Origin: Escherichia coli
GTDB lineage: Bacteria > Pseudomonadota > Gammaproteobacteria > Enterobacterales > Enterobacteriaceae
Strand: one strand, 5' to 3'
Assembly: GCF_965641715.1 (NCBI RefSeq)
Contig: NZ_OZ282455.1
DNA length: 64,000 bases
Every line of letters starts with the position of its first letter. Position 1 is the first letter of the stretch. A model generated the notes under the pieces. It did no database searches. It was not told where the DNA came from and saw only the letters and a list, made by a program, of their open reading frames with translations. Below, in pieces: positions 1-18,422 of this stretch. A program made the translations under genes and the position numbers.

Positions 1-79
1 TAAGGCCGCGCAGCCCGAGCCTCAGCCGCAACCGCCGGAGGGGGAGGATTACGGGTTTTCAGACGATATCCCGTTCTGA
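1..79 (+). CDS. ssb: single-stranded DNA-binding protein, 3' end only (partial)
   Basis: Frame ending at the TGA at 77-79 translates ...PEPQPQPPEGEDYGFSDDIPF*, the Pro/Gln-rich tail and acidic DDIPF tip typical of SSB C-termini; position matches plasmid leading-region order ssb-psiB-psiA. Confidence 0.6.
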   Translation, partial: KAAQPEPQPQPPEGEDYGFSDDIPF

Positions 80-97
80 CTGGCCTGACTGTGATAA

Positions 98-370
<273 letters not shown>

Positions 371-428
371 GAGAGGTGCCGGACGCGCGAACGTCCGGCA
401 GGACATAAGCAATTATAAGGGGATGATT

Positions 429-2387
429 ATGCCTGTAACGAAGTGTGAACCAGAAACCACCCGCAAAGCAAGCCGTAAATCTGCAAAAACGCAGGAAACA
501 GTCCTGTCTGCCCTGCTGGCGCAGACGGAGGAAGTGAGCGTGCCGCTGGCCTCACTGATTAAGTCACCGCTGAATGTGCGCACGGTGCCGTATTCTGCGG
601 AGTCCGTCAGCGAACTGGCAGGGTCCATTCAGGGCGTCGGACTGCTGCAGAATCTGGTCGTGCATACCCTGCCTGGTGAGCGCTACGGTGTCGCCGCAGG
701 TGGTCGCAGACTGGCAGCACTCAATATGCTGGCTGAGCGTGGAATCATTCCGGCTGACTGGCCTGTCCGCGTGAAAATTATTCCGCAGGAACTGGCGACG
801 GCTGCATCGATGACCGAGAACGGTCATCGCCGGGATATGCACCCTGCCGAACAGATTGCCGGATTCCGCGCAATGGCGCAGGAAGGCAAAACAGCGGCAC
901 AAATCGGTGATTTGCTGGGCTATTCACCCCGCCACGTTCAGCGAATGCTGAAACTGGCAGACCTTGCGCCTGTCATCCTTGATGCGCTGGCAGAAGACCG
1001 CATCACCACAGAGCACTGTCAGGCGCTGGCGCTGGAGAACGACACCGCGCGTCAGGTGCAGGTGTTTGAAGCTGCCTGTCAGTCGGGATGGGGCGGAAAA
1101 CCGGAAGTACAGACCATTCGTCGTCTGGTGACCGAAAGTGAAGTGGCGGTGGCGGGGAACACTAAATTCCGCTTCGTGGGGGCTGATGCCTTCTCGCCAG
1201 ATGAACTGCGCACTGATTTGTTCAGCGACGATGAGGGTGGCTATGTGGACTGTGTTGCGCTCGATGCCGCCCTGCTGGAAAAACTCCAGGCTGTTGCAGA
1301 GTACCTTCGGGAAGCTGAGGGCTGGGGATGGTGTGCCGGACGCATGGAGGCCGTTGGTGAGTGCCGTGAAGATGCCCAGGCATACCGCAACCTGCCGCAG
1401 CCGGAAGCAGTGCTGACGGAGGCGGAAGAAGAACGCCTGAACGAACTGATGGCACGTTACGACGCACTGGAAAACCAGTGTGAGGAATCTGACCTGCTGG
1501 AAGCAGAAATGAAGCTGATGCGCTGCATGGCGAAGGTCAGAGCGTGGACGCCGGAGATGCGTGCCGGAAGCGGTGTGGTGGTGTCCTGGCGTTATGGCAA
1601 CGTGTGTGTCCAGCGTGGTGTGCAGTTGCGCAGCGAGGATGACGTGGCTGACGACGCTGACCGCACGGAACAGATGCAGGAGAAAGCGTCAGTGGAGGAA
1701 ATCAGTCTGCCACTGCTGACGAAAATGTCTTCCGAACGCACGCTGGCAGTCCAGGCGGCACTCATGCAGCAACCGGACAAATCTCTGGCACTGCTGGCAT
1801 GGACGCTCTGCCTGAATGTGTTTGGCAGCGGGGCGTACAGTAGTCCCGCCAGAATTTACCTGGAATGTGGGCATTACTCACTGACCAGCGCTGCGCCGTC
1901 AGGGAAGGAAGGTACCGCATTCATGGCGCTGATGGCAGAGCACTTTCGCCTTGCTGCCCTGCTGCCGGATGAATGGGAACGGGACATGACGACGTTCCTG
2001 TCACTCAGCCAGGAGGTGCTGTTATCCCTGCTCAGTTTCTGCACTGCATGCAGCATCCACGGCGTTCAGACCCGTGAGTGTGGTCACACGTCACGCAGTC
2101 CGCTGGACTCGCTGGAAACCGCCATCGGCTTTCACATGCGCGACTGGTGGCAGCCGACAAAAGCAAACTTCTTCGGACACCTGAAAAAGCCGCAGATTAT
2201 CGCAGCCCTGAATGAGGCAGGACTGTCCGGTGCCGCACGGGACGCGGAGAAGATGAAGAAAGGTGATGCGGCTGAACATGCAGAGCACCATATGAAAGAC
2301 AACCGCTGGGTTCCAGGCTGGATGTGTGCACCACATCCACAGACAGATGCCACTGAACGCACCGATAACCTGGCTGATGCCGCCTGA
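429..2387 (+). CDS. ParB-like nuclease domain protein (leading-region, 652 aa)
   Basis: Long ORF; N-terminal region has ParB/Srx-like signature (LQNLVVH...GERY.VAAGGRRLAAL); AAGGGG RBS 6 nt before the ATG at 429; lies upstream of psiB as in IncF/IncI leading regions. Confidence 0.8.
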   Translation: MPVTKCEPETTRKASRKSAKTQETVLSALLAQTEEVSVPLASLIKSPLNVRTVPYSAESVSELAGSIQGVGLLQNLVVHTLPGERYGVAAGGRRLAALNMLAERGIIPADWPVRVKIIPQELATAASMTENGHRRDMHPAEQIAGFRAMAQEGKTAAQIGDLLGYSPRHVQRMLKLADLAPVILDALAEDRITTEHCQALALENDTARQVQVFEAACQSGWGGKPEVQTIRRLVTESEVAVAGNTKFRFVGADAFSPDELRTDLFSDDEGGYVDCVALDAALLEKLQAVAEYLREAEGWGWCAGRMEAVGECREDAQAYRNLPQPEAVLTEAEEERLNELMARYDALENQCEESDLLEAEMKLMRCMAKVRAWTPEMRAGSGVVVSWRYGNVCVQRGVQLRSEDDVADDADRTEQMQEKASVEEISLPLLTKMSSERTLAVQAALMQQPDKSLALLAWTLCLNVFGSGAYSSPARIYLECGHYSLTSAAPSGKEGTAFMALMAEHFRLAALLPDEWERDMTTFLSLSQEVLLSLLSFCTACSIHGVQTRECGHTSRSPLDSLETAIGFHMRDWWQPTKANFFGHLKKPQIIAALNEAGLSGAARDAEKMKKGDAAEHAEHHMKDNRWVPGWMCAPHPQTDATERTDNLADAA

Positions 2388-2441
2388 TGAACAACCACAC
2401 CGCCCCGCCGGAGACGGGGCGGCAGCAAGGGAGATACCGTG

Positions 2442-2876
2442 ATGAAAACTGAACTGACCCTGAATGCCCTGCAGTCCATGAACGCACAGGAATATGAAGA
2501 TATCCGTGCTGCGGGAAGCGATATGCGCCGTAATCTCACTCACGAGGTGATGCGTGAAGTGGACGCACCGGCTAACTGGATGATGAATGGCGAGTATGGC
2601 AGTGAGTTCGGGGGCTTTTTCCCCGTCCAGGTTCGTTTCACGCCAGCCCACGAACGTTTCCACCTGGCATTATGTTCGCCGGGAGACGTCTCTCAGCTCT
2701 GGATGCTGGTTCTGGTGAATTGTGGTGGACAGCCTTTCGCCGTCGTTCAGGTGCAACATATCTTCACGCCTGTCGCTATCAGTCACACGCTGGCGCTTGC
2801 CGCGACACTTGATGCGCAGGGGTACAGTGTTAACGACATCATCCATATCCTGATGGCAGAAGGAGGTCAGGCATGA
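2442..2876 (+). CDS. psiB: plasmid SOS inhibition protein PsiB
   Basis: 144-aa product [27 protein letters not shown]...ILMAEGGQA matches my recollection of PsiB along its length; stop overlaps psiA start. Confidence 0.9.
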
Positions 2877-3592
2877 GCGCACGTTCACGGGCACTGATCC
2901 CCCTCAGCGCAGAGCAACAGGCCGCCATGCAGGCTGTGGCTGTCACCGAACAACGTCGTCGTCAGGGACGCACACTTTCAGCATGGCCTTATGCCAGCGC
3001 TTTCTTTCGCTGCCTGAATGGCAGTCGCCGGATTTCGCTGACCGATCTCCGCTTTTTTGCTCCTGCGCTGACGAAGGAGGAATTTCATGGCAACCGTCTC
3101 CTGTGGCTGGCTGCCGTGGATAAACTGATTGAAAGTTTTGGTGAAGTCTGTGTTCTTCCCCTGCCATCCGATGCGGGGCATCGTCTGTTCCCGTCCGTTC
3201 CTTTTCGTGAAGGTGAGCGGCGTCGTCAGAAAACCACGCTGACAGAGCAGAAATACAGCCGCCAGCGGGAACGTGAGGCAGAACGACGGGAACTGGAATA
3301 CCAGACATGTTTTGCTCAGGCGCAGATTGACCTTGCGTTTCATACTCCCGCCACGGTCGGAAGCTGGTTGTCCCGCTGGTCTGGTGTTGTTGAGGAGCAT
3401 GATCTGGAAACGATTTTCTGGGGGTGGTGCGGGCGTTTTCCATCACTGTCATCATTTGACCGGTTTTTCTGGCAGGAGGAACCACTCTGGCGGCTGATTT
3501 TTGAAGCCGGTGAGGCCGGTCGTGGTGCACCGGTACAGGTACGTGCACTTGAGCAGTGGATGATCCCGAACAAGCTGGAGAACGCAATATGA
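2873..3592 (+). CDS. psiA: plasmid SOS inhibition protein PsiA
   Basis: 239-aa ORF immediately after psiB with ATGA overlap; size and position as in F/IncI psiB-psiA operon. Confidence 0.8.
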
Positions 3593-4185
3593 TGAAATCA
3601 GACGAACAATATCACGTTCCCGTGTGGATGCGACCTCTGTTGCCGTTGCTCTGCAATACCGGTGGTAATGATCCGGAGGAACTGCTGAATGATACAGAAA
3701 CCACCGCCAGTGCGAATATTGTCCGTTATGTACTGATAGTTGCAGTGCGGTCGCAGATTGATCTGCTGCAGCTACTGTACAGGAAAGGACTGTTGCGCAC
3801 AGAGATACCAGGTGGCTTTTCACCGGAAGAAGCGCAGGAACTCCTGGATAATCTGGTGCGCAGCCATATCAGCAAGGCGCTGTCGGGTGAGCGAATGGCA
3901 GCCCGTGACAGAAATGCCGATCTGACCTGGATTCGCCAGCAACTGGTCGATGCCGCCTGGTTTGTCCGTGCCACACTGGAAGCGCATGGGATGGGCGTCG
4001 GAAATGAGAGTCCCTCTGCTCCGCCGGAGACAATGCCGGACATACAGACACGGGAACTGGTTATGTTGATCAAGCGACTGGCATCATCGCTGAAAGCGGT
4101 GAAACCCGACAGTAGCGTGGTGCGTGAAGCGCAGGACTGGCTGTGCGACAGAAAACTTGTGGATATCACAGATATTCTCCGGTGA
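3589..4185 (+). CDS. hypothetical protein, translationally coupled to psiA
   Basis: ORF whose ATG overlaps the psiA stop (ATGATG); no family recognised. Confidence 0.55.
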   Translation: MMKSDEQYHVPVWMRPLLPLLCNTGGNDPEELLNDTETTASANIVRYVLIVAVRSQIDLLQLLYRKGLLRTEIPGGFSPEEAQELLDNLVRSHISKALSGERMAARDRNADLTWIRQQLVDAAWFVRATLEAHGMGVGNESPSAPPETMPDIQTRELVMLIKRLASSLKAVKPDSSVVREAQDWLCDRKLVDITDILR

Positions 4186-4199
4186 ACCAGACATGTATA

Positions 4200-4647
4200 T
4201 TTTACGCAGGGACACGCCGATCATGATCGTTTCATATCAGGGGTGGTCTGGAGGTCATGCGGCGTGTCCTCTGCACTCGCCGGAATAAGGAAGTCGCCGG
4301 CGGCTCCGCTTTTACCCGGCCATGCGGGGCATGGCCTTGTGGGTTTTCAGCTCTGTGGCCTCAGCGTCGTGTGCGGGCTGTGCCGTGCCTCCATCTTAGC
4401 CGGGCTGGCAGGGATGCAAGGGTACGCTTCGCCGCTGCGGTCACCCGGTCCCTCCTTCCCGTCTGCCGTGATTTTCCGGTCGTTCACCCGCTCAGATTTC
4501 GCGGTCTCACCCTCCAACTCCCGCCAGCCGTGTGCGTCAGGCTGCGGCTTCCCTTGCGCCCTGTGCATCCCCGCCTTATCGCCCGGCTTTTATGGAGGCA
4601 CGGCACCGCCCGGTGCCGCAGAACATGTGACTATGGAGGATTCGGGA
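4200..4647. promoter_or_regulatory. GC-rich structured leader upstream of ardA; candidate single-strand promoter region
   Basis: Roughly 450 bp of GC-rich sequence with no convincing coding signal (it only appears as an in-frame extension of the ardA ORF); inference from the known ssDNA-promoter arrangement upstream of leading-region genes. Confidence 0.3.
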
Positions 4648-5148
4648 ATGTCTGTTGTTGCACCTGCTGTATACGTTGGAACCTGGCACAAATACAACTG
4701 TGGAAGTATCGCCGGACGCTGGTTTGACCTGACCACGTTTGATGATGAGCGCGACTTTTTCGCCGCCTGCCGTGCTCTTCACCAGGATGAAGCCGATCCT
4801 GAACTGATGTTTCAGGATTATGAGGGATTCCCGGGGAATATGGCCTCTGAATGCCATATCAACTGGGCCTGGGTTGAAGGCTTCCGCCGGGCACGGGATG
4901 AAGGCTGCGAAGAGGCTTATCGTCTCTGGGTGGATGATACCGGTGAGACGGATTTTGACACCTTCCGCGATGCCTGGTGGGGCGAGGCTGACAGTGAGTA
5001 GGCTTTTGCGGTTGAGTTCGTCAGTGATACCGGCCTGCTGGCTGACGTGCCGGAGACGGTGGCGCTCTATTTTGACTATGAGGCGTATGCGCGGGATTTA
5101 TTCCTGGACTCCTTCACCTTTATTGACGGTCATGTGTTCCGTCGGTGA
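4648..5148 (+). pseudogene. ardA: antirestriction protein ArdA interrupted by an in-frame amber codon at codon 118 (4999-5001)
   Basis: [33 protein letters not shown]... matches remembered ArdA; ORF stops at TAG 4999-5001 but the same frame continues AFAVEFVSDTGLLADVPETVALYFDYEAYARDLFLDSFTFIDGHVFRR* to 5148, giving the 166-aa ArdA length if the TAG were CAG. Confidence 0.8.
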
Positions 5149-5496
5149 TTTACTCCCCCGCTCCGGCGGGGGTATGGCCTGCCAGGCCGCCGGAAAACCC
5201 TGGCAGGCTTACGCCTGCCTGAAATGCAGGAGGGCCGCGCCTGCGGCGCTGCCCTTCCTGCCCGTCATGGTGTGAGGCATTTTTCTGTTATGTCGTTTCT
5301 GTTGTTCTGATTTCCGGAGGCGGGGACACCTTCGGCTCCCGGCTGCCTGGCGGCATCCGGTCGTCAGGCCCGACTCCGACAGGCAGCTGCTGGCGCACCC
5401 GCCAGTCTCCGCCGAACCCGCTGGCGCGGTTTCGGGCTGCCGCTACGGTCCGATGTCTGAAAAACCAGGCTTGCAGCGACCGTTCCGGTCGCGCCG

Positions 5497-5860
5497 CCCC
5501 TGTCGCGCCGGAAACGGCGCTCCCTGCACACCTGACGGTGTGTAAGGCCACTGCGCCTGATGGCGCAGTCAACCCTTCCGCCGCCACCCCTGCGGCCTGT
5601 TTCCCGCTGTGGACTTTCCGGGGGCTGGAGTAACCACATCCCGTTTCAGCAGTCTAGGGGAAGATATACCGTCCACAAAATTTTTAGCCATAAACCCGGC
5701 AAAAAATTTTGCGTCCGCCCCCGGACAGCTGCCCCGTGACGTGGTGACGGACGCCCCATCGGAAAGGTCCACTGCGGGGAGAAACCCCGAAGAAGTGGAC
5801 GGCAGAAGGGGCTTTCGCCCCTCCGGGGAGCAACCGGTCGGCCCGGCGACCTGATTCAGC
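5497..5860 (+). repeat. Frpo-like structured repeat, copy 1 (candidate ssDNA promoter)
   Basis: About 360 bp highly similar to 8372-8725; contains inverted repeats CACACC..GGTGTG and CTGCGCC..GGCGCAG; sits directly upstream of an ORF start. Confidence 0.6.
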
Positions 5861-5876
5861 AGAAGGAGACGTTTTC

Positions 5877-6311
5877 ATGACAGTCAGCAGCACGATTTCC
5901 GTTTTTTGCCGCGACGGGGTGTTCCGTACCGTTTACTGCCACCTGCACGGGGAGCCGACCTGGAACGGTCGCATCCTGCATACCCACTATGCCACCGGTC
6001 AGCAGGCCGAAGCCCTGGTTGAACACGGTGATATCCGTTGCCTCGGTCCCCGTTGCGACAAACCCGCCGGGCATACGCTTCAGAACCCGGTGGACGGTGT
6101 GACGGCTTATTACGGACGTGACAGTGGTTTCCGGATGGACAGTGAGGCGCGTGAGTACCGTTCTTTCAGGGAGGCTATTGCCACTGAAAGCACTGAAGAG
6201 GTGCGCTTCCATTATGTGTTCATCGACGGCTACTGGAAGGTGATGTACCGCACGCCGGAAGGCTGGAAGATGAAAGCGCTCGCGCTGGCACTGCGTCGCT
6301 GTCCGAAATGA
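5877..6311 (+). CDS. hypothetical protein (144 aa) downstream of Frpo-like repeat 1
   Basis: Clean ORF with GGAGA RBS; no family recognised. Confidence 0.6.
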   Translation: MTVSSTISVFCRDGVFRTVYCHLHGEPTWNGRILHTHYATGQQAEALVEHGDIRCLGPRCDKPAGHTLQNPVDGVTAYYGRDSGFRMDSEAREYRSFREAIATESTEEVRFHYVFIDGYWKVMYRTPEGWKMKALALALRRCPK

Positions 6312-6317
6312 AAAAAA

Positions 6318-6338
6318 GGCAGGGCGATAAACCCTGCC
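6318..6338 (+). terminator. hairpin after orf144 (weak terminator candidate)
   Basis: GGCAGGG-CGATAAA-CCCTGCC stem-loop preceded by an A-run; no strong T-tract on plus strand. Confidence 0.3.
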
Positions 6339-6404
6339 TCTCTCCGCCGGCGCTTCCCCGCCAGGAAGTCCGGCATCTCAATCACTATCTATGGAGATTA
6401 TGCC

Positions 6405-6671
6405 ATGAGACCATCAATTATCTTCGCAACCGCCGAGTATGTAAAGCGTCTGCGTGAAGAGTGCCTGCGGGAGAATAAACCCCTGCACCGCCATACCCGC
6501 TTCAGACGTCAGGAGCTGGCACAGGATGAGATTAACCCGGACGTCCTGGCGATGAGCGGCCATATCGCCAGACGCTGCAGTGAGCAGAAGCGGGTGCGTA
6601 TCCCCGCTATGAAAGTCAGCGAATGGGGCCACCTGCTCCGCGCGCTTGAAATTGAGCGGGTCTGCCACTGA
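6405..6671 (+). CDS. hypothetical protein (88 aa)
   Basis: ORF preceded by GGAGA; basic, no family recognised. Confidence 0.4.
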   Translation: MRPSIIFATAEYVKRLREECLRENKPLHRHTRFRRQELAQDEINPDVLAMSGHIARRCSEQKRVRIPAMKVSEWGHLLRALEIERVCH

Positions 6672-6735
6672 TTAACCCTTGCCGTCTGCCTGTGCAGGCG
6701 GCAGGATACGTTCAGACATCTCACCAGGAGGAACC

Positions 6736-7662
6736 GTGAGTAAGAAGAAAACCACCACGACGCCCACGCCGCATGATGCCGCGTTCCGGTCGTTCCTGGC
6801 GAATCCCGACGTCGCCAGAGATTTTCTGGAACTGCATCTTCCGGCGGAGTACCGGCAGTTGTGCGACCTGTCCACGCTGAAGCTGGAACCCGCCACCTTT
6901 GTTGAGCCGGACCTGCATCAGTACGCCAGCGATATCCTCTGGAGTGTGAAAACCACCGGGGGTGAAGATGGCTATGTTTATACGCTCATCGAGCACCAGA
7001 GCACCGAAAATCTGTACATGCCTTTCCGCATGTTACGTTACAGTGTGGCGGCGATGCAGAGACATCTGGAGCAGCACAAAACGTTGCCACTGGTCATTCC
7101 GGTGCTGTTCTATCACGGTGAGCGCAGCCCGTACCCGTACAGCATGAACTGGCTGGACTGTTTTGAGAATCCGGCGCTTGCGGCTAAAATATACACAAAG
7201 CCGTTTCCGCTGGTTGATATCACTGTCGTTGATGACAATGAAATCATGAACCATCGCCGGATGGCCGCACTGACGCTGCTGATGAAGCATATCCGCCATC
7301 GTGACATGATGGAGCTGCTGGACAAACTCCCGCAGGTCATGGTGGAAATTTCAGACGAGCAGGTGCGTGTTCTGATTCATTACATCGTTAACGCAGGGGA
7401 CTCTGTATCACCGGAATTTATGCGGGCGCTGGCTGAGCGTCTGCCGCAGCATGAGGATAAACTGATGACTATCGCAGAACGTCTTGAGCAAAAAGGTCGC
7501 CAGGAAGGCAGGATGGAAGGACGCATGGAAGGACGCATGGAAGGAGCGCTTGAAAAAGCCCTGGCTATTGCGTGCCAGCTTCAGAAAATGGGGATGACGC
7601 CGGAGCAGATTAAGCAGGCTACCGGACTTTCCGATGACGAACTGAAGAAAATCACTCACTGA
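6736..7662 (+). CDS. Rpn-family (YhgA-like, PD-(D/E)XK transposase_31) recombination-promoting nuclease
   Basis: HDAAFRSFL...LIEHQS...PLVIPVLFYHGE motif block typical of Rpn/YhgA-like proteins; GTG start after AGGAGG chosen; C-terminal tail carries GRMEG tandem repeat. Confidence 0.75.
   Translation: MSKKKTTTTPTPHDAAFRSFLANPDVARDFLELHLPAEYRQLCDLSTLKLEPATFVEPDLHQYASDILWSVKTTGGEDGYVYTLIEHQSTENLYMPFRMLRYSVAAMQRHLEQHKTLPLVIPVLFYHGERSPYPYSMNWLDCFENPALAAKIYTKPFPLVDITVVDDNEIMNHRRMAALTLLMKHIRHRDMMELLDKLPQVMVEISDEQVRVLIHYIVNAGDSVSPEFMRALAERLPQHEDKLMTIAERLEQKGRQEGRMEGRMEGRMEGALEKALAIACQLQKMGMTPEQIKQATGLSDDELKKITH
7495..7547 (+). repeat. 15-bp tandem repeat inside rpn encoding GRQEG-RMEG-RMEG-RMEG
   Basis: ggacgcatggaagga repeated in tandem; seen directly. 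Confidence 0.8.
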
Positions 7663-7671
7663 GTAAACATC

Positions 7672-7702
7672 ACAGCCCGGCAAAATGCCGGGCTTTTTTG
7701 TC
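7672..7702 (+). terminator. rho-independent terminator after rpn
   Basis: AGCCCGGC-AAAAT-GCCGGGCT hairpin followed by TTTTTTG. Confidence 0.75.
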
Positions 7703-7723
7703 AGCAGGAGCAGAGCAAACAGC

Positions 7724-7882
7724 ATGACGATTGCAGAACGTCTTATTCAAAAAGGCGCACTTGAAGTGGCGCGGGAAATAGCCTGCCGGCTGCGGGATAT
7801 GGGCTGGACGCCGGAACGGATTCAGGAGGCAACCGGACTTTCCGGTGAAGAACTGAAAAAGCTGTTTCCTGATGAGCAGTAG
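7724..7882 (+). CDS. standalone RpnS-like small protein (paralogue of the Rpn C-terminal tail)
   Basis: 52-aa product MTIAERLIQKG...TPERIQEATGLSGEELKK aligns with Rpn residues from the internal Met (MTIAERLEQKG...TPEQIKQATGLSDDELKK); DNA also visibly similar. Confidence 0.5.
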   Translation: MTIAERLIQKGALEVAREIACRLRDMGWTPERIQEATGLSGEELKKLFPDEQ

Positions 7883-7912
7883 CCTGGCATTCAGCCAGGC
7901 TGTGAATCACGC

Positions 7913-8164
7913 TCACACATCCTCTGCCGTTTCCCCCAGTTCATTTTCCAGTCGCCTGATGATATCTGCCTTACGCATCCCCTGCATGTGAGGCAGCAGG
8001 TCACGGACTGAAAGTGCCTGGGTGGTCCTCCAGACGGTGACGTCCACCTGTTCCGCATTTTCCCAGGCGTGCCATGTTCTCTGCGTCACGCCAAATTCTC
8101 TGGCCGCTTTTTCGCGTGACCAGAGCATGCTTTTTCGCCAGATTCGCAGTTCCCAGCCGGTCAT
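7913..8164 (-). CDS. XRE-type helix-turn-helix transcriptional regulator
   Basis: 83-aa ORF with WSREKAAREFGVTQRTWHAWEN helix-turn-helix-like segment; one of only two leading-region protein genes on the minus strand. Confidence 0.55.
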   Translation of the reverse strand: MTGWELRIWRKSMLWSREKAAREFGVTQRTWHAWENAEQVDVTVWRTTQALSVRDLLPHMQGMRKADIIRRLENELGETAEDV

Positions 8165-8179
8165 AAAACACCTTTAAAA

Positions 8180-8266
8180 AAGTGAAAAAACTTCACTTTA
8201 TTTTATCATCATAATCACCAAATTAACGCGATAAATAAGTGTGAAAAAGTGAAGAAATTTCACTTT
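8180..8266. promoter_or_regulatory. two palindromic operator-like sites (AGTGAA-N4/5-TTCACT) in the promoter region of the HTH gene
   Basis: Perfect inverted repeats at about 8181-8198 and 8248-8264 in an AT-rich region immediately upstream of the minus-strand HTH gene. Confidence 0.5.
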
Positions 8267-8371
8267 TTTTGCTTGTAAATGTCGTGCGGTTTTCTCTGTT
8301 TTCACCTGTGCGGGAGTGGTGTGCCAGTGACCACCACATGCCATTGTTGTGCCGTCGTTTTTCTTCAGTCG

Positions 8372-8725
8372 CGCCGTATGCGGCGCTCCCTGCACACCTT
8401 ACGGTGTGTAAGGCCACTGCGCCTGATGGCGCAGCTGTCTCTGCCTGTCTGCCGCCGCACTGCGGCCTGTTCTCCGCAGACGGACTTTCCGGGGGTACAT
8501 ACATGACCACATCCCGTTTCAGTCGTCCAGGGGAGAGATGTACCAGCCACAAAACTTTTTGCCGCAGGCGTCAAAAACTTTTGCGTCTGCCCCCGGACAA
8601 CTGCCCCGTGACGTGGTGAGCGTCCCCCGTCGGAAAGGTCCACTGCGGGGAAATCCCCGAAGACCCGGACGGCAGAAGGAGCTTCGCTCCTCCGGGAAAT
8701 GACCTGGCTGACCCGGCAGTCGTGA
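8372..8725 (+). repeat. Frpo-like structured repeat, copy 2 (candidate ssDNA promoter)
   Basis: Paralogous to 5497-5860 including the GCGCTCCCTGCACACCT.ACGGTGTGTAAGGCCACTGCGCCTGATGGCGCAG core; ends just before an ORF start. Confidence 0.6.
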
Positions 8726-8740
8726 CGATGAGGAGACAAT

Positions 8741-9592
8741 GTGATGAATCAGACTTTACCCACTGCTGACCTGAATACTGCCGGCACGACAGATGTTATT
8801 CCGTCTGTGGCTATCGACCGCATCATCGCGCAGCGTAACGAAGGTATTGCACTGTTCATGCAGGCGATGGAATGCCTGGCGACAGCGCGCAAGATTCTGC
8901 TCGATGCGTCAGGTGATATTTTTCTTTACGGGTTTGAAGACTGCGTGACTGATTCCGTTCGTCGCATAGATAAACCGGAAGAAGCGAAAAGGAATATCAC
9001 CCGTCTTGCCGACCGGAAAATCTGGGATCGCCTGATGACAGATACGGGCATGTACACCTTCATGAGTTCATGCCAGCGTGATGAGTGGAACAGCCAGCTG
9101 ATGAGCGACACCTGTCCTGAAATCACCCTGGACAATGTACTGGCAACATTCCGCCATCTGAATGCCTGCAAGATGCAGACATTTGAACAGGGACTGATTG
9201 ATGTCTACCGGAAATTGTCATGGGATTACAGAACCAATAATCCCTGCCGTCTGGGTAAGAAAATCATTATTGAAAACCTGCTGTACCGCTGGAGTAACGG
9301 GCGTGTGACGCTGGACTGCAGCGGACGGGAGGCACTGGATGACCTGGTACGTCCGTTTTATCTGCTGGAGGGGCGCAACGTTCCTGACTTCAGGAACAGT
9401 ATCGGGGCGCAGTATGGTGAATTTCTCGGGAACGGCGACAATGTCGGTAAGCTGTTAGAAGGGGAATATTTTACGGTGCGTGGCTACCAGAAAGGGACCG
9501 TACACATTGTCTTTAAGCGTTCTGACCTTGTTGAAAAACTGAATGATATTATTGCACGGCATTATCCAGGTGCATTGCCGCCACGAGTCTGA
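8741..9592 (+). CDS. hypothetical protein (283 aa) downstream of Frpo-like repeat 2
   Basis: ORF with GAGGAG RBS; no family confidently recognised. Confidence 0.6.
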   Translation: MMNQTLPTADLNTAGTTDVIPSVAIDRIIAQRNEGIALFMQAMECLATARKILLDASGDIFLYGFEDCVTDSVRRIDKPEEAKRNITRLADRKIWDRLMTDTGMYTFMSSCQRDEWNSQLMSDTCPEITLDNVLATFRHLNACKMQTFEQGLIDVYRKLSWDYRTNNPCRLGKKIIIENLLYRWSNGRVTLDCSGREALDDLVRPFYLLEGRNVPDFRNSIGAQYGEFLGNGDNVGKLLEGEYFTVRGYQKGTVHIVFKRSDLVEKLNDIIARHYPGALPPRV

Positions 9593-9602
9593 TTAAACAG
9601 AA

Positions 9603-9636
9603 AAGCCCTGGTATTTATGCCGGGGCTTTTTTTTCT
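9603..9636 (+). terminator. rho-independent terminator after orf283
   Basis: GCCCTGG..CCGGGGC hairpin followed by TTTTTTTT. Confidence 0.7.
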
Positions 9637-9677
9637 GTAATCATCATAATCTCAGAACACGATGTGACATTGTCACA

Positions 9678-10019
9678 TCAATTGTTGTTCATATCGATGC
9701 CATCTTTCCTGCCTGAATCTGTCTTTTTAGGTGCTGTTTTAGAGGAAGAACGGCGGGATGGTTTTTTCGATTCTGCTTCCCGAATAATGTCACGAAGTGC
9801 CTTCTCTCCTACTTCATACCCTGCATTTTTGAGCGTGTCACGAACATCTGCCAGTGTATAACCCTTTGTCCTTACCAGGACAATAATGTCATCACGAATG
9901 GCATCAAGAAAATCACGCAATGTTTTCCGTTGAGCGGTGAGATCTGGCAATTCCGATAAAGCAGCTTTTGCCAGCTGGATGTCATCATCTGAGTAAAATT
10001 TTTTAGAAGCCATTGGCAC
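9678..10019 (-). CDS. hypothetical protein with basic Ser/Lys-rich C-terminal tail
   Basis: 113-aa ORF from the six-frame track, divergent from nikA across oriT; no family recognised. Confidence 0.45.
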   Translation of the reverse strand: MPMASKKFYSDDDIQLAKAALSELPDLTAQRKTLRDFLDAIRDDIIVLVRTKGYTLADVRDTLKNAGYEVGEKALRDIIREAESKKPSRRSSSKTAPKKTDSGRKDGIDMNNN

Positions 10020-10149
10020 TTTCTCTCCGTTTCATGTTGAAGTCTGATTTTATCATCAAAAACTGACTCCTGGCAGGGCTGCGCCCTGCCTCTGCCGTCT
10101 GCATAAGACTATGATGCACAAAAATAACAGGCTATAATGGCCTGAAAAA

Positions 10150-10246
10150 CGGGACAGGATGTGCAATTGTAATACCGTCACACGCGACGCTATTACAATT
10201 GCCATCTGGTCAGGGCTTCGCCCCGACACCCCGTAAGGAGCCTGAA
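10150..10246. other. oriT: origin of transfer (oriT) region
   Basis: Imperfect inverted repeat AATTGTAATACCGTCACACGCGACGCTATTACAATTG immediately upstream of nikA; position and sequence consistent with my recollection of R64 oriT; nick site not resolved. Confidence 0.6.
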
Positions 10247-10579
10247 GTGAGTGATAGTGCGGTAAGAAAGAAAAGTGAGGTACGGCAAAAGACAGTTGTC
10301 AGGACACTCAGATTCTCTCCTGTTGAGGATGAAACCATCAGGAAAAAAGCTGAAGATTCCGGACTTACTGTATCTGCTTACATCCGAAATGCAGCACTGA
10401 ATAAGCGAATTAACTCCCGTACAGATGATGCTTTTCTGAAGGAGTTAATGAGACTGGGAAGGATGCAGAAGCATCTGTTTGTTCAGGGAAAAAGAACCGG
10501 TGACAAGGAATACGCAGAAGTGCTTGTTGCCATAACCGAACTTACAAATACATTGCGTAAACAGTTAATGGAAGGTTGA
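10247..10579 (+). CDS. nikA: relaxosome accessory protein NikA (110 aa)
   Basis: GTG start after AAGGAG gives 110 aa (VSDSAVRKKSEVRQKTVVRTLRFSPVEDE...), the size I recall for R64 NikA; directly upstream of the relaxase. Confidence 0.8.
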   Translation: MSDSAVRKKSEVRQKTVVRTLRFSPVEDETIRKKAEDSGLTVSAYIRNAALNKRINSRTDDAFLKELMRLGRMQKHLFVQGKRTGDKEYAEVLVAITELTNTLRKQLMEG

Positions 10580-10589
10580 GGATTCTCCG

Positions 10590-13289
10590 GTGAATGCAGT
10601 CATTCCAAAAAAGAGAAGGGACGGCAAGTCTTCGTTCGAAGACCTGGTATCCTACGTCTCTGTCCGGGATGACATGACCGATGAGGAACTGGATTTATCT
10701 TCTTCTTCGCAGGCTGAACAACCGCACCGAAGCCGTTTCAGTCGCCTTGTTGATTATGCGACACGTCTTCGAAATGAGTCATTCGTGGCGCTGGTTGATG
10801 TCATGAAGGACGGCTGCGAATGGGTCAACTTTTATGGTGTCACCTGCTTTCATAACTGTACTTCTCTTGAAACTGCCGCTGCAGATATGGAGTACATTGC
10901 CCGGCAGGCACACTATGCAAAAGATGACACTGATCCTGTTTTTCACTACATTCTTTCCTGGCAGTCACATGAAAGCCCGCGTCCGGAACAGATTTATGAC
11001 AGTGTACGTCATACGCTGAAATCACTCGGCCTTGCCGACCATCAGTATGTCTCTGCCGTGCATACTGATACAGATAATCTGCACGTCCATGTGGCTGTTA
11101 ACCGGGTACACCCTGAAACGGGTTATCTGAACCGGTTATCCTGGAGTCAGGAAAAACTCAGTCGTGCCTGCCGTGAGCTTGAACTGAAGCATGGTTTTGC
11201 TCCGGATAACGGTTGCTGGGTCCATGCACCGGGAAATCGTATCGTTCGCAAAACCGCCGTTGAACGTGATCGCCAGAACGCGTGGACACGCGGGAAAAAA
11301 CAAACTTTTCGCGAGTATGTCGCGCAGACAGCGGTCGCTGGTTTACGCAGTGAACCTGTAAATGACTGGTTATCCCTGCATCGTCGTCTTGCGGAAGATG
11401 GTCTGTACCTGTCTCAGATGGACGGAAAATTTCTGGTGATGGATGGCTGGGATCGCAACAGGGAAGGTGTACAGCTTGACTCGTTTGGTCCCTCCTGGTG
11501 TGCAGAAAAACTCATGAAAAAAATGGGTGACTACACGCCAGTACCAAAAGACATTTTCAGCCAGGTGGAAGCACCAGGACGCTATAATCCGCACTTCATT
11601 GCCGCTGATGTTCGCCCGGAAAAAATCGCTGAAACAGAAAGTCTGCAGCAGTATGCCTGTCGTCATCTTGGAGAACGTCTGCCGGAAATGGCACGGGAAG
11701 GACGGCTGGAAAACTGCCAAGCTATTCACCGCACACTGGCTGAAGCGGGATTATGGATGCGTGTTCAGCATGGTCACCTGGTTATCTGTGACGGTTATGA
11801 TCATAACCAGACTCCCGTTCGTGCTGACAGCGTATGGTCGCTGCTGACGCTCGACAATGTGAATCAACTCGATGGTGGCTGGCAGCCTGTACCAACAGAT
11901 ATTTTCCGCCAGGTTACGCCAACAGAACGCTTCCGTGGTCGTCGTATGGAGAGCTGTCCTGCGACCGATAAAGAATGGCACCGTATGCGTACAGGCACGG
12001 GGCCGCAGGGGGCTATCAAACGCGAACTGTTTTCTGACAAAGAAAGTCTGTGGGGATACAGCATCAGCCATTGTAGCCCTCAGATTGAAGAAATGATCAC
12101 ACAGGGTGAGTTTACCTGGCAGCGTTGTCATGAGCTGTTTGCACAACAGGGACTGATGCTACAGAAACAACATCACGGGCTTGTTGTCGTTGATGCCTTT
12201 AATCATGAGCAAACGCCGGTGAAGGCCAGCAGCATTCATCCTGATCTGACACTGGGGCGTGCAGAGCCACAGGCCGGACCTTTTGTGAGTGCCCCAGCAG
12301 ATTTGTTTGACAGGGTGCAACCTGAAAGTCGCTATAACCCGGAGCTGGCTGTCAGTGACAGGTACGGGGTCAGCAGTAAACGTGACCCAATGCTGCGCCG
12401 GCAGCGACGTAAAGCCAGAGCTGAGGCCCGTGCTGACCTGCGTGCCCGCTATCTGGCATGGCGTGAACAATGGCGTAAACCAGATCTGCGTTATGGGGAA
12501 CGTTGTCGGGAAATTCATCAGGCATGCCGTCTGCGGAAGTCACACATTCGTGCGCAGTACGATGATCCGGCATTACGTAAGCTGCATTATCACATTGCAG
12601 AAGTTCAGCGAATGCAGGCATTGATCAGGCTGAAAGAAGACATCAGGGATGAGCGACAGAAACTTATTGCTGACGGGAAGTGGTATCCACCCTCTTACCG
12701 TCAGTGGGTCGAAACTCAGGCTGCTCAGGGAGACAGGGCTGCTGTATCGCAGCTGAGAGGCTGGGATTATCGCGATCGCCGTAAAGACAGGTCACGCACA
12801 ACGACGACAGACCGCTGTGTCGTGCTTTGTGAACCGGGCGGAACGCCGGTATACGGTAATACCGGTGATCTCGAGGCCCGTCTGCAGAAGAACGGGAGTG
12901 TTCGTTTCCGTGACCGTCGGACGGGAGAGTTTGTCTGTACGGATTATGGTGACAGGGTTGTTTTCCGTAATCACCATGACCGCAATGCGCTGGCAGATAA
13001 ACTGGATTTGATTGCACCGGTATTATTCGGGCGTGATCCTCGCATGGGTTTTGAACCAGAAGGAAACGACAAACAATTTAACCAGGTCTTTGCTGAAATG
13101 GTTGCCTGGCATAATGTGACAGGCCGTACCGGTCACGAAGACTACAGGATTACGCGACCGGACGTGGATCATCACCGTGAAGGAAGTGAACGCTACTACC
13201 GCGATTATATCGCGGCGAACAGCAACGATGACGCATCACTGCCTCCGCCGGAGCAGGATAAACGCTGGGAACCGCCTTCTCCAGGTTAA
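10590..13289 (+). CDS. nikB: relaxase NikB (MobA/MobL-type, 899 aa)
   Basis: 899-aa ORF with histidine-triad-like motif HTDTDNLHVHVAVNRV; length matches recalled R64 NikB. Confidence 0.85.
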   Translation: MNAVIPKKRRDGKSSFEDLVSYVSVRDDMTDEELDLSSSSQAEQPHRSRFSRLVDYATRLRNESFVALVDVMKDGCEWVNFYGVTCFHNCTSLETAAADMEYIARQAHYAKDDTDPVFHYILSWQSHESPRPEQIYDSVRHTLKSLGLADHQYVSAVHTDTDNLHVHVAVNRVHPETGYLNRLSWSQEKLSRACRELELKHGFAPDNGCWVHAPGNRIVRKTAVERDRQNAWTRGKKQTFREYVAQTAVAGLRSEPVNDWLSLHRRLAEDGLYLSQMDGKFLVMDGWDRNREGVQLDSFGPSWCAEKLMKKMGDYTPVPKDIFSQVEAPGRYNPHFIAADVRPEKIAETESLQQYACRHLGERLPEMAREGRLENCQAIHRTLAEAGLWMRVQHGHLVICDGYDHNQTPVRADSVWSLLTLDNVNQLDGGWQPVPTDIFRQVTPTERFRGRRMESCPATDKEWHRMRTGTGPQGAIKRELFSDKESLWGYSISHCSPQIEEMITQGEFTWQRCHELFAQQGLMLQKQHHGLVVVDAFNHEQTPVKASSIHPDLTLGRAEPQAGPFVSAPADLFDRVQPESRYNPELAVSDRYGVSSKRDPMLRRQRRKARAEARADLRARYLAWREQWRKPDLRYGERCREIHQACRLRKSHIRAQYDDPALRKLHYHIAEVQRMQALIRLKEDIRDERQKLIADGKWYPPSYRQWVETQAAQGDRAAVSQLRGWDYRDRRKDRSRTTTTDRCVVLCEPGGTPVYGNTGDLEARLQKNGSVRFRDRRTGEFVCTDYGDRVVFRNHHDRNALADKLDLIAPVLFGRDPRMGFEPEGNDKQFNQVFAEMVAWHNVTGRTGHEDYRITRPDVDHHREGSERYYRDYIAANSNDDASLPPPEQDKRWEPPSPG

Positions 13290-13320
13290 AAAAAAGGCCG
13301 CGCCAGAATCCGGCGCGGCC
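13288..13320 (-). terminator. terminator hairpin between convergent nikB and trbC
   Basis: GGCCGCGCC-AGAATC-CGGCGCGGCC hairpin flanked by an A8 run (a T-run on the minus strand). Confidence 0.6.
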
Positions 13321-13325
13321 ACTGT

Positions 13326-15617
13326 TCAGTACATTCCGTCCCAGTCCGGACGGTTGGTTTTTTTATGATGAAACCCGTTTACAGGACGCCCTGTCGGGTG
13401 GTTATTGTCCTGTGGAAGCGTTAACAGGTTTATACCTGCTCTTTCTGCTCTCACTGATATCTGATTTTCCTCTTTTGTTTCAGGTAGTTCTGGTCTGTTC
13501 AGCGTGATATAGCGAATTCGTCGCTCTTCCCGTGTGGTCGTTTTAAGCGTATTCACCGCTGTTTCCCACAAGGCACTTTCACGTGCGTTGATATCTGTGT
13601 CGTACTCTTCCAGCATTGCCATAGCCGCCTGACGTCCTGCAATGCGTTGCTGGAATGTATCCACGATCGTGTGCGGCTCTGTGCGAATTTTTCGTCTTTT
13701 TCTGGAGGGTTTTGCAGTCAGGACGCCAATGATGGCACTGACATTTTCCGGTGACGGTATTCGACGTTGAGTAGTACGGGGAACAAGACGGCGGAGACGG
13801 TCCAGGCGTGGCGCATCCACGCTGATATACCTGTTTATAACAACGGGATCGCTGCTGCAGCTTTTCTCATCGTCAGGGATGAAGAATGATGCTGATGGTA
13901 CGGTTTCTCCCCGGAAAATAGAAAAGAACTCGCCAGGATGAAGTTCAATCAACTCCTGAACATTTATCTTGCTTTCCATCAGGATGCTGATTTGTGGGCT
14001 GTCAATCCATGATTCACCAAATATGCCGTCCTGACGCTGCAGGTTGTTCATTCTCGCCCTGGCTTCTTCACCGGCGGCGCTTTTCAGCGTTCTGGCCGTA
14101 CTACCCTCGCTGACAATCCTGCCGGCAAATTTTGTCCCCGTGTTCTGCATCAGTGTTGCAGTATTCGTGGCTGTTGTCTGTCCTTCTATACGTTCCTGGT
14201 CCTGTGCCATCAAAATCAGAGCAAAATCCAGTGAACGCACCTGAGTGGCTTCCACAGCAATACGGTCCGTATAGTATGCCCCCACTTCATCAAGGAAACA
14301 CAGATAAGGGAAACGCCCCTTATATTTTTTGACTTCCAGTGCATCGGAATCAGTTCCTTCGAGGCGGTAGCCCAAATCACGGGCGAGAATCATACTTTTC
14401 TGGGTGATAAACATTCGTCCAAGAGCAGACGTTGTATGCGCTGATGTATCCAGAGCGGGGATCATTACCATCAGAATCCTGTCGCTGTGAATGCTGTCAC
14501 GGATATCGATATCACCGGAATCTTCAGCAAAAATATCCCCGAATGCTTCCGTGAATGTGCTGAAAGTTTCAGAAAACTGCCCGGAGAGATAAGCATGTTG
14601 TTTTCTGGGTTCTTCCGTCCAGGCTGATGGTGTCCTGACCAGCGACAGGTCGAAACCGGGAACGTCCTGAAGGTAGTTACGTAACGGTGCGATAGCTTCT
14701 TCCGGCCACTGATCATCGAGGCCACGACAGTAAAGTTTGGCCATCCCTTCGAGAGTCATATGTTCACGGAGCATCTGCAGCGACATTGTTTTGCCTTCGC
14801 GCACACACCAGAATTTAGTACCAAATACCAGTGCCTTATTCATGGCAATGGCCCGGGACTGCCACTCGCCCCCCTGGACGTTCTGGGGCAGCATTGACTG
14901 CATTGTCTCCGCTGTGAATGCCTCAGTGCTGTAACAGAAGGGATTCCAGGTATTTGACTGAGGACGCGTTTTTTCACCACTCAGAATGATTTCACTGCGG
15001 GATTTTCCTCCGTTCATGAAGTTAATGACTTCCACATCGTCTTCACGTCCAAAGCGTCTGGCCAGATACCAGATCGTTCTTGCCGTATCATTCTGTGCCT
15101 TGCCATCGACAAGGGTGAATCCTCTTGCCCAGCAAAGTGGGTTAATCGCCCAGGCAAAGATGGTTTCCGTTTTACCGCCACCGGTGGTGGCGAAAAACAT
15201 TATATGGCGGGTCAGATCGTCCATACTCAGCCATAACTCCCTGCCAATATCCCTGACGCGTTGATAACCAACATAGAATATGCCGCTGGCCGGTGATTCC
15301 AGAATGACCTCATACTGGAACAGGGTTGGCCAGAAGCTGAAAAGACTTCTTTTAATCATTCTGTCCTGTGACGGGTCAGCACATTCCAGCGTCATGGGCA
15401 TACGAAGAGGGCAGCGCCATCGCTGCAGACTAAATACCAGCATTGTTATCAGTGTGAACAACAGACATGCCGGTAATGCAAGTGGCCAGATAAAACTGGC
15501 CACAAGACTTGCCACCAGGCAAAAGCCATAGATATTGAGACTCTGGAGTGCATTCCAGACAGGATTTCCCCAGGCTGTACGGTGTAAAAGCTCGGGGTTA
15601 ACGCGATGTTCACTCAT
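13326..15617 (-). CDS. trbC: conjugal transfer protein TrbC (P-loop NTPase)
   Basis: 763-aa ORF with Walker A FATTGGGKTE and N-terminal TM segments; gene order trbA-trbB-trbC-nikB as in R64. Confidence 0.75.
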   Translation of the reverse strand: MSEHRVNPELLHRTAWGNPVWNALQSLNIYGFCLVASLVASFIWPLALPACLLFTLITMLVFSLQRWRCPLRMPMTLECADPSQDRMIKRSLFSFWPTLFQYEVILESPASGIFYVGYQRVRDIGRELWLSMDDLTRHIMFFATTGGGKTETIFAWAINPLCWARGFTLVDGKAQNDTARTIWYLARRFGREDDVEVINFMNGGKSRSEIILSGEKTRPQSNTWNPFCYSTEAFTAETMQSMLPQNVQGGEWQSRAIAMNKALVFGTKFWCVREGKTMSLQMLREHMTLEGMAKLYCRGLDDQWPEEAIAPLRNYLQDVPGFDLSLVRTPSAWTEEPRKQHAYLSGQFSETFSTFTEAFGDIFAEDSGDIDIRDSIHSDRILMVMIPALDTSAHTTSALGRMFITQKSMILARDLGYRLEGTDSDALEVKKYKGRFPYLCFLDEVGAYYTDRIAVEATQVRSLDFALILMAQDQERIEGQTTATNTATLMQNTGTKFAGRIVSEGSTARTLKSAAGEEARARMNNLQRQDGIFGESWIDSPQISILMESKINVQELIELHPGEFFSIFRGETVPSASFFIPDDEKSCSSDPVVINRYISVDAPRLDRLRRLVPRTTQRRIPSPENVSAIIGVLTAKPSRKRRKIRTEPHTIVDTFQQRIAGRQAAMAMLEEYDTDINARESALWETAVNTLKTTTREERRIRYITLNRPELPETKEENQISVRAERAGINLLTLPQDNNHPTGRPVNGFHHKKTNRPDWDGMY

Positions 15618-16680
15618 GGCCAGACTCGCTGTCGGTGGTTTTCAGGAATAAATTAAGCGTGCCAGTTTCCTGCAGAATTCCTGTAGGCAGATGCCAGCCG
15701 GTGTCGGACAGCACCCATGGGGTACCGGCAAATCCGAACTTACGGAAGGCGACATTGTTAACATCAATCGCAGCTCTGGCTGCTTTCAGGCATGTTTCAT
15801 CTGCAGGCGTTGTTTCTTCTGATGGCGTCATCATTCCGTTATCTGCGGAATACAGTCGGTGCCAGCCGGCAGCACGTTTCTGAGCATCTTTTTCACACAG
15901 CAGTGGTGCCACACGGTCGGTGGATTCCTCTCCACCAATAACTGAAACCGGGTAGATAACGACATTGAAGTCGCTGGCCAGGCGTTTTAAGGCCGGCTCC
16001 AGAAGTCTGCAGTTAGGACAGGCAGGATCGAGAAATGCGAACAGGGTTCGTTCATGACCGGATGACAGGTTGATGGTAAACATGCCCCGATCGGCGTTCC
16101 GCTTCAGAACAGTAGCCAGATTATGTCGCGCAGCTGCGGCTTCCGGATTTTTGCTTGTGATTGTTTTCTCCGGGACCTGGACGTCTTTTTTCGGGGGAAC
16201 CGGGAGTTGAATGCCTTCATTTAATGGCACAGTGTGATTCAGGTGAGGGGGTAGCAGTCGTGGCTCACCTGCTGTCTGTACTGCTTCAGGCGTTGTATCA
16301 TCCCAGAATACACGATCAACATAGCGGAACAGAGAGAAGCCAATCGTTGCCATTACGAACAGCACAACGCTGGCGATTATGCCACGGAACAAAGGTGTTC
16401 TGCTGAAGCGGCGTTCCATCAGATATTCAAGGCGCAGGCAGGAATCAATAGCTGTAAGTATCTGGTCAGCGTTATGCTCCTGTTTATCAATCAGGACGGT
16501 TTCTCTGTTACGGGTGCCCATGGCGTCAAAGGCTATATGAATCAGTTGATTATTTCGTGTTACCAGCCCTGACAGGGCATCCCGTGGAAGGACGGCAATA
16601 ATTTCTGTCCTGCCATCCGGCCAGATTGCCTGCACGGAAATATGTTTTGCAATGCGTGTTGCAAAGTACTCGATTGTCAT
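15610..16680 (-). CDS. trbB: TrbB, thioredoxin-fold disulfide isomerase-like
   Basis: 356-aa ORF with CPNC active-site-like motif (FLDPACPNCRLLEPAL). Confidence 0.7.
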   Translation of the reverse strand: MTIEYFATRIAKHISVQAIWPDGRTEIIAVLPRDALSGLVTRNNQLIHIAFDAMGTRNRETVLIDKQEHNADQILTAIDSCLRLEYLMERRFSRTPLFRGIIASVVLFVMATIGFSLFRYVDRVFWDDTTPEAVQTAGEPRLLPPHLNHTVPLNEGIQLPVPPKKDVQVPEKTITSKNPEAAAARHNLATVLKRNADRGMFTINLSSGHERTLFAFLDPACPNCRLLEPALKRLASDFNVVIYPVSVIGGEESTDRVAPLLCEKDAQKRAAGWHRLYSADNGMMTPSEETTPADETCLKAARAAIDVNNVAFRKFGFAGTPWVLSDTGWHLPTGILQETGTLNLFLKTTDSESGHE

Positions 16681-16698
16681 TTTCAGTTCTCCGGATAA

Positions 16699-17907
16699 TC
16701 AGAATTCGTTGTCTGTAGCAGGTGTGCGGGGCAGGATGTCGTCGGTGAGGGACCAGTTGGTCAGGATGCGGCGTTTCCGGTCGCGATCTGGTTGTGGTTC
16801 ATCCCAGATAAGACCGAGACTGAGCATATCCCGCCGTAAGCCTTCCACCGCTTCATCAACACAGGGTTCAGGGCAGGGAAGACCAAAACGCATGGCTTCG
16901 GCCTCTGCACGTGCAACGGCCACCACGCCAGCGCCTTCAATAAATCCTTTCGTGGTATTGGCGCGGTGTAATGCATAAAACAGCGTCCTGTCCACGCCTT
17001 TCAGCCAAATCCAGTTGGGTGGCGTAAGCCGCAGGTCATGTGCATACAGCCAGACCAGCCCACTGCGGACGTAGCGATGTTGTTTCAGCCATTGCTGTGC
17101 TCCGTTGCTTTTAATCACTCTCTGGAAAGCTGATTTGGCCAGTGAATAAACAGGGGTACAGAATTTCCCACTGTCCCGTTTGCTTTTAATTCTGCATGAG
17201 AGGTTCAGTGTATCCATGAGCTTTAATGCTGCCTTACGATCATCCAGGAAATACTGAAGACCAAATATGGCAAAGAGCGCTTTTTCATGTGGTGCCATGT
17301 CTTTCCAGGACGTTAAAGGTTTACCCAACTGGGCCATGAAACATCGTCTTGCAGCTGCAACATCGAGCTGCATATTGGTGATGAGAGTATGCTGCTCGAC
17401 AAATGCTTCCGGGGTGAGAGCAACCCGCCGTTCAGGTCGTTTGCCACCATGAAAGAGTTTTTCCGGATCACCATCTGCCAGTACAGGGGCGATAGCAGGG
17501 GACAACGAAGCAAAGATGTGTGGCAGTCGGGTAATATCTACTGGTCTGCGGGTGAAACGGCTTTGTCCCGGATGTTGATACCATTCCCACAAACACCAGA
17601 GTGTCACAGGTAAGAGGTACATCCACAGAATACCTATGGTCTGCTCCATGACGTTAACCCACTGGCTATAGCTTATGTTGGCGGCGTTGTTACCGGTCAT
17701 GGCAAGCAGGTTGTATCGTGGTGCTGCATAGTTATGAAATGGCCCCCAGTCGACCAGTCCCCATAAGGTATGAAGAATCAGGCAGCTGGCGTAAACCACT
17801 TCCGGCAAGAATAACCATATGACGAATAGCAGCAGGATAAGAAGGACACCAACAGCGCCCCATATCTGCATAGGATCTTCTGCGACAGGCTGTCGATTGT
17901 AAGACAT
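16699..17907 (-). CDS. trbA: TrbA membrane protein
   Basis: 402-aa ORF with hydrophobic N-terminus at the R64 trbA position. Confidence 0.65.
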   Translation of the reverse strand: MSYNRQPVAEDPMQIWGAVGVLLILLLFVIWLFLPEVVYASCLILHTLWGLVDWGPFHNYAAPRYNLLAMTGNNAANISYSQWVNVMEQTIGILWMYLLPVTLWCLWEWYQHPGQSRFTRRPVDITRLPHIFASLSPAIAPVLADGDPEKLFHGGKRPERRVALTPEAFVEQHTLITNMQLDVAAARRCFMAQLGKPLTSWKDMAPHEKALFAIFGLQYFLDDRKAALKLMDTLNLSCRIKSKRDSGKFCTPVYSLAKSAFQRVIKSNGAQQWLKQHRYVRSGLVWLYAHDLRLTPPNWIWLKGVDRTLFYALHRANTTKGFIEGAGVVAVARAEAEAMRFGLPCPEPCVDEAVEGLRRDMLSLGLIWDEPQPDRDRKRRILTNWSLTDDILPRTPATDNEF

Positions 17908-18140
17908 GACAAAGTCTCCATTTCTGGAATTTAAATCAAACGGAAAGGTTAAAAATTTATTTGCAGGCGATAAGAGCTAACCAGAGGAATTAGCCGTGCG
18001 ATAAAAGGATTGTTGCAGATACGAAAGTCGTTAGAATAGCTGCGGGCGCTTGAGGCTGTATGCCGAAAGCGTTTTGTGGACGGTATACAGCAGAAAGCCC
18101 CTGGAGATTTTTTTATCAATCAACCAAGGGCTCTACTGTA

Positions 18141-18351: not shown

Positions 18352-18360
18352 CGGGCAACA

Positions 18361-18390: not shown

Positions 18391-18422
18391 GCGAAGGCTG
18401 ACCTCATTGCGCCCTTTCTTCT

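Follow-up and report, generated by a model that had tools for sequence, protein, structure and literature searches.

Antirestriction protein ArdA of the IncI1 plasmids ColIb-P9 and R64, a 166-aa member of Pfam family PF07275 of the WP_000117627.1 type, is the closest described relative of the gene product considered here, and WP_000117627.1 is the ArdA annotation in many IncI plasmids. Orf18 ArdA of Tn916 (PDB 2W82; also 7BTO/7BTR) belongs to the same family and is distant in sequence. The limits of the three ArdA domains have been placed at residues 3-61 (domain 1), 62-103 (domain 2), and 104-165 (domain 3), and two residues of domain 3, F161 and I163, pack against residues of domain 2 (McMahon 2009, PMC2731889). 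Domain 3 provides the dimer interface as well as the anti-restriction and VF motifs, and in the full protein it enables the dimer, an elongated DNA mimic, to occupy the DNA groove of type I restriction-modification enzymes. For ColIb-P9 ArdA, the anti-restriction and VF motifs are essential according to Nekrasov 2007 as cited in McMahon 2009, and domain 1 is given as dispensable in the same secondary account (PMC2731889). For Orf18 ArdA, monomeric domain 3 mutants kept anti-restriction and lost anti-modification, and anti-restriction activity was placed in domains 1-2 (Roberts et al. 2013, PMC3906837). Finally, the small proteins designated sArdN, which resemble only the N-terminal part of ArdA, are reported to shield lambda phage against EcoKI upon expression from a vector, and their small genes are described as stable, as evolving independently, and as having no ardA remnants beside them (bioRxiv 10.1101/2025.03.20.644391).

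The DNA analysed here, a 64-kb stretch referred to as the window, belongs to a conjugative plasmid of the IncI1 complex, of which it represents the leading and transfer region, and is collinear with pRKI3099a and pNORD8_3. It contains, in this order, the end of ssb, parB, psiB, psiA, a hypothetical gene, ardA, nikAB, trbABC, traY to traE, rci and the shufflon, pilV to pilI, and traCBA. The place of ardA is that of the ColIb-P9/R64 gene (ssb-parB-psiB-psiA-hypothetical gene-ardA), and the IncI1 leading-region arrangement ssb-DUF905-parB-psiB-psiA-hypothetical gene-ardA, followed further on by nikAB next to oriT, was recovered with the pRKI3099a proteins aligning collinear and intact in tblastn. 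Approximately 60 backbone genes aligned full-length to pRKI3099a with 0 stops and 0 gaps, and ardA is the only broken gene. The hairpin region and ribosome binding site upstream of ardA are also the same as in ColIb-P9/R64. The locus is an IncI1 ardA of the ordinary kind in its usual surroundings, and it is truncated, with the following features:

4230..4640, minus strand: long hairpin-forming region upstream of ardA (single-stranded DNA folding, -100.4 kcal/mol, z -4.83)
4636..4640, plus strand: ardA Shine-Dalgarno sequence GGAGG, 7 nt upstream of the ATG (read from the sequence)
4648..4998, plus strand: ardA codons 1-117, still translatable, covering domains 1 and 2 and ~8 residues at the start of domain 3 (translation, 2W82 alignment, and domain limits of McMahon 2009, PMC2731889)
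4999..5001, plus strand: premature amber codon TAG at codon 118, in place of an ancestral GAG (Glu118) that was altered by G->T at position 4999 (comparison with sister sequences)
5002..5148, plus strand: untranslated ardA 3' remnant, i.e., codons 119-166 and TGA with the rest of domain 3, 100% wild type (translation and comparison)

The ardA frame (window 4648-5148) starts at ATG 4648 and runs through 117 sense codons to TAG 4999-5001, after which the same frame continues for 48 sense codons to TGA 5146-5148; translation thus bears out the interruption that the first-pass annotation had described, in place of the uninterrupted ORF of about 166 codons, spanning all three domains, that characterizes the family. 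That annotation had also taken the sequence beyond the TAG to be ArdA-like, and this was corroborated: with the stop read through, residues 8-161 matched positions 1-151 of the 155-position PF07275 model (E 8.3e-30), so that the profile match extends over the whole ArdA domain, and no NCBIfam model matched either the truncated or the full ArdA. The 48 codons after the TAG are true ArdA sequence rather than a chance open frame, because in addition to the Pfam match the window ArdA is 100% identical to WP_000117627.1 as encoded by pRKI3099a and pUMNK88_91, except for codon 118. At the DNA level, 500 of the 501 positions are shared with pRKI3099a ardA. The ancestral codon had been proposed to be CAG, which proved wrong: codon 118 is GAG (Glu118) in pRKI3099a and pUMNK88_91, with G at the position of 4999, and the same G is found in all sister sequences (L001, L002, L004-L008, and L092-L097). 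The proposed single-base nonsense change therefore holds as a G->T transversion at 4999, by which the window encodes TAG and yields residues 1-117 only, where ColIb-P9/R64 ArdA has GAG.

The part of ArdA that is removed was delineated by alignment to Tn916 Orf18 ArdA, in which residues 8-160 of the query aligned to residues 6-155 of the 2W82 chain (E 4e-7), and the three-domain DNA-mimic architecture of the full-length protein is deduced from this alignment. Query residues 109-160 fall on chain residues 103-155, which places Glu118 opposite the conserved acidic residue D112 of Tn916 ArdA; the window allele accordingly stops at the D112 equivalent and is devoid of the dimer-forming domain 3. 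Both domain 3 motifs lie downstream of the stop, with the anti-restriction motif LLADVPETVALYFD at residues ~130-143 and the C-terminal VF motif (HVFRR) at residues 162-166, and neither these motifs nor the domain 3 dimer interface are present in the translated product. Because F161 and I163 of domain 3 pack on domain 2, the loss of domain 3 should probably also destabilise domain 2. Re-initiation at GTG 5047, opening a 33-aa ORF, was considered as a source of a C-terminal fragment and was rejected: the GTG is not preceded by a Shine-Dalgarno sequence, and the start of the anti-restriction motif is missing from the ORF.

Comparison with the ardA genes of related plasmids, as the first-pass annotation had advised, placed GAG at codon 118 in every relative and allowed the age of the lesion to be assessed. 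Window positions 1-18171 differ from pRKI3099a by 43 mismatches and 0 gaps, and within positions 1-10485 the only mismatch is 4999. Sister contigs were retrieved by the exact NikB protein of the window, and all of these encode a 166-aa ArdA with GAG at codon 118. One of these (L094, GCA_958312075.1) is identical to window 590-23289 (22,700 bp) except for 4999, while two others differ from the window at 3 sites (L093) or by 2 mismatches and one gap (L095). Since 4999 is the sole difference with sisters over 10.5 kb and 22.7 kb, and since the 147 bp after the TAG are unchanged from wild type, it is strongly supported at the sequence level that the lesion arose very recently on a common plasmid backbone, and that no later decay has followed; the recency in the earlier suggestion of a recently inactivated gene is upheld accordingly.

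The TAG allele is also rare. An exact 50-mer containing the TAG, which was preferred over a 57-mer for BLAST on account of a V125A polymorphism at 5021 inside the longer sequence, was found in 0 of the 1,885 PLSDB plasmids that carry this ardA stretch, including ColIb-P9 (NC_002122) and R64 (NC_005014), and in 0 of the 1,318 E. coli RefSeq records that carry it; the compared ardA copies of ColIb-P9, R64, and ~3,200 other records are thus all without it. An exact scan with a TAG 41-mer likewise returned 0 JGI metagenome contigs and 0 contigs of GTDB species genomes, where the wild-type 41-mer that served as control returned 77 and 1, respectively. Full-length ardA could be read in 72 copies from those metagenome contigs, 69 of which have an intact ORF of 166 aa; the other three are broken by indels and lie on contigs with a coverage of 1.7-3x. 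Glu118 and the C-terminus are invariant in the metagenome ardA copies, and none of the 72 full-length copies ends at residue 117, which speaks against the possibility, allowed for at first, that functional relatives naturally terminate at this position. A search of the literature yielded nothing relevant on amber alleles of ardA in IncI1 plasmids, and gave no sign of a described or engineered mutant. Nonsense mutations make up about 3.8% of all single-base substitutions that ardA can undergo. The occurrence of one such SNP by chance is unremarkable, and selection need not be invoked.

On these grounds the window is likely to carry a real and very recent G->T mutation (GAG Glu118 -> TAG) in an IncI1 ardA, most likely constituting a private loss-of-function allele and hence a nascent pseudogene. 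Translation ends after residue 117, and the product is devoid of nearly all of domain 3. With the dimer interface and both motifs gone, loss of ArdA function is the most likely outcome, and the plasmid has most likely lost the protection that ArdA confers against type I restriction upon entry into a new host. The allele is private to a tiny sub-lineage. The loss of function may be tolerated because ArdA would matter only upon entry into a recipient whose type I system ignores the methylation of the donor, and would not be needed during clonal spread or during transfer between hosts with like modification. Tolerance could further be provided by the ArdB/KlcA protein and the orphan methylase that normally accompany ArdA in IncI1 leading regions; in the sister plasmids, the region upstream of ssb, which lies outside the window, contains such an additional anti-restriction gene of the ArdB/KlcA type together with an orphan DNA methylase. 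A fitness cost of the loss in some matings is nevertheless to be expected, because in a TraDIS screen of an I-complex plasmid both ardA and ardB emerged as genes that influence conjugation when TOP10, which is devoid of EcoKI, was the donor (PMC10286972). In the same study, the effect of ardB was tied to the EcoKI+ recipient J53 (PMC10286972).

An unlikely alternative to this loss of function is that the 117-aa fragment, which comprises domains 1-2, retains partial anti-restriction and has lost anti-modification, so that the allele would be a natural separation-of-function allele and no null. The behaviour of the Orf18 domain 3 mutants and the placement of activity in domains 1-2 (PMC3906837) argue for such a fragment, as does the activity reported for sArdN against EcoKI (bioRxiv 10.1101/2025.03.20.644391), since these proteins share with the window product an ArdA N-terminal-like sequence only. 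This support, however, stems from point mutants of Tn916 Orf18 or from distant small proteins and not from truncations of the ColIb type. In the secondary account of the ColIb-P9 protein it is the VF and anti-restriction motifs, both removed here, that are essential, with domain 1 being dispensable, and the packing of F161 and I163 predicts that removal of domain 3 destabilises domain 2 (PMC2731889). Moreover, none of the 72 natural copies ends near residue 117, and the allele has been seen only twice, in the window and in one other contig (L003), without spread. It is improbable that E118* produces a stable domain 1-2 fragment that would block type I restriction through the HsdR-contacting surface and leave methylation by the host unblocked. 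If it did, the allele would be a naturally arisen separation-of-function ArdA, possibly selected for faster modification of the incoming plasmid or for reduced harm to the host.

Assignment of the window allele to the sArdN proteins was considered and rejected. A member of that family would be a stand-alone short gene of a stable lineage without an ardA remnant, whereas the window retains a 3' remnant of fully (100%) wild-type sequence, and its allele, found only here and in L003, is private and a single step away from wild type. For these reasons the locus is a truncation and no sArdN member.

A further alternative, which appears quite improbable, is that the T at 4999 is an artefact, i.e., an error of sequencing or assembly or a mutation acquired in laboratory culture, and that the natural plasmid has GAG. 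Only one base is affected, and oxidative damage classically produces G->T changes. The exact 117-aa product was found in public proteins on six contigs (L003-L008), of which L003 (GCA_965259455.1, contig CBDGWI010000044.1, 6,472 bp) is the only one with a true TAG allele; its ardA is identical at 501/501 positions, its 117-aa product is likewise tagged PF07275, and it is 100% identical to window 1-4561. The contig has a 127-bp self-overlap, and the 3' flank of its ardA runs into the repeat that precedes ssb, resulting in an apparent circle of 6.3 kb. This circle almost certainly arose when a short-read assembly looped through the repeats of the leading region, and does not correspond to a real molecule. 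Because this self-overlap and repeat join are typical of a short-read assembly-graph loop, L003 is a different assembly from the one behind the contiguous 64-kb window. Both could nonetheless derive from the same isolate or project, or even from the same read set, so that this sole other sighting may not be independent.

Against an artefact stand the same base in two assemblies, one contiguous over at least 64 kb and the other a 6.5-kb contig, the other backbone genes, which show neither stops nor indels relative to their relatives, and the 0 gaps over 18 kb in the comparison with pRKI3099a. The site of 4999 is not part of a homopolymer, a Dam site, or a Dcm site. Taken together, the second assembly, the clean backbone genes, and this sequence context render a base-calling error at 4999 unlikely, and the sequencing error that the first-pass annotation had listed among its explanations is disfavoured accordingly; a mutation that arose in culture would in any case be genuine for the clone that was sequenced. 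The five remaining contigs (L004-L008) were rejected as true stops, as they are wild-type contigs that merely end at ardA nt 352/353 (window 4999/5000). These contigs are unrelated, and they end at exactly the base that is mutated in the window. Their shared break is largely a selection effect of the look-up with the exact 117-aa product, and it also suggests a recurrent assembly-graph fork, e.g., caused by co-resident ardA alleles.

That full-length ArdA is still made, by a suppressor tRNA of the host or by programmed read-through, such that expression is conditional, is highly improbable. The frame past the TAG is open and unchanged, and a suppressor of the glnV(supE) type, if present, would yield E118Q. 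The position of this substitution matches Tn916 D112, and the Mut5 set, which includes D112N, belongs to those mutants in which anti-restriction activity was mostly kept (PMC3906837). Recency (one SNP in 22.7 kb) fully accounts for the open downstream frame, however, and a tRNA search of the 64-kb window returned 0 tRNAs, which rules out a plasmid-borne suppressor tRNA within it. Of the 60 further backbone genes that were inspected in the window, 5 have TAG as their normal stop codon, which argues against recoding. A UAG followed by G, as found here, is an efficient termination context in E. coli, and amber suppressors are rare in natural isolates. As a programmed event, read-through would imply a stop that is conserved among relatives, and because all relatives carry a sense codon (GAG) at this position a conserved read-through signal is impossible. 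The proposal that the gene is expressed only in amber-suppressing hosts thus found no support.

The nascent-pseudogene reading implies an ordinary knockout of a well-known gene and no new biological mechanism. If the allele is null, plasmids of this lineage are expected to enter recipients with type I restriction less efficiently when the donor DNA lacks the matching modification. The plasmid of the window and GCA_958312075.1, or sisters similar to pRKI3099a, would then constitute a natural isogenic pair that is one SNP apart in the region compared, and the main value of the allele would be that of a near-isogenic natural knockout for gauging the contribution of ArdA to the spread of IncI1 plasmids. 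It also contributes one small observation on the frequency with which established plasmids lose their anti-defence genes. With respect to annotation, the locus should be flagged as an ardA pseudogene with an internal stop (E118*), and not as a 117-aa 'ArdA'.

Several further observations concern the surroundings of the gene. The hairpin-forming region at 4230-4640 is unaffected by the mutation at 4999, none of 100 shuffled sequences folded as well, and it presumably fits the Frpo/ssi-type single-strand promoter context of IncI1/F leading-region genes. Repeats akin to this region are located at 5330-5823, downstream of ardA, and at 8368-8696, upstream of a DUF4942 gene, and one such dispersed repeat shares 90% identity with the sequence that precedes ssb in pRKI3099a. 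The finQ gene and the IS66 element that are present in pRKI3099a are absent from the window (18171-21850 and 47400-58550). At the protein level, identity to pRKI3099a amounts to only 54% for ExcA and to 86% for TraY, and the pil region shows ~95% DNA identity to both reference plasmids, with PilS at 77% amino acid identity; a mosaic of this kind, with varying exclusion and pilus genes, is usual for IncI1. Finally, the gene at 6679-7662, downstream of ardA, encodes a recombination-promoting nuclease of the Rpn family (Transposase_31) with a short tandem peptide repeat, GRMEGRMEGRMEG, near its C-terminus, and the length of this nuclease differs among the sister plasmids, ranging from 296 to 308 aa.
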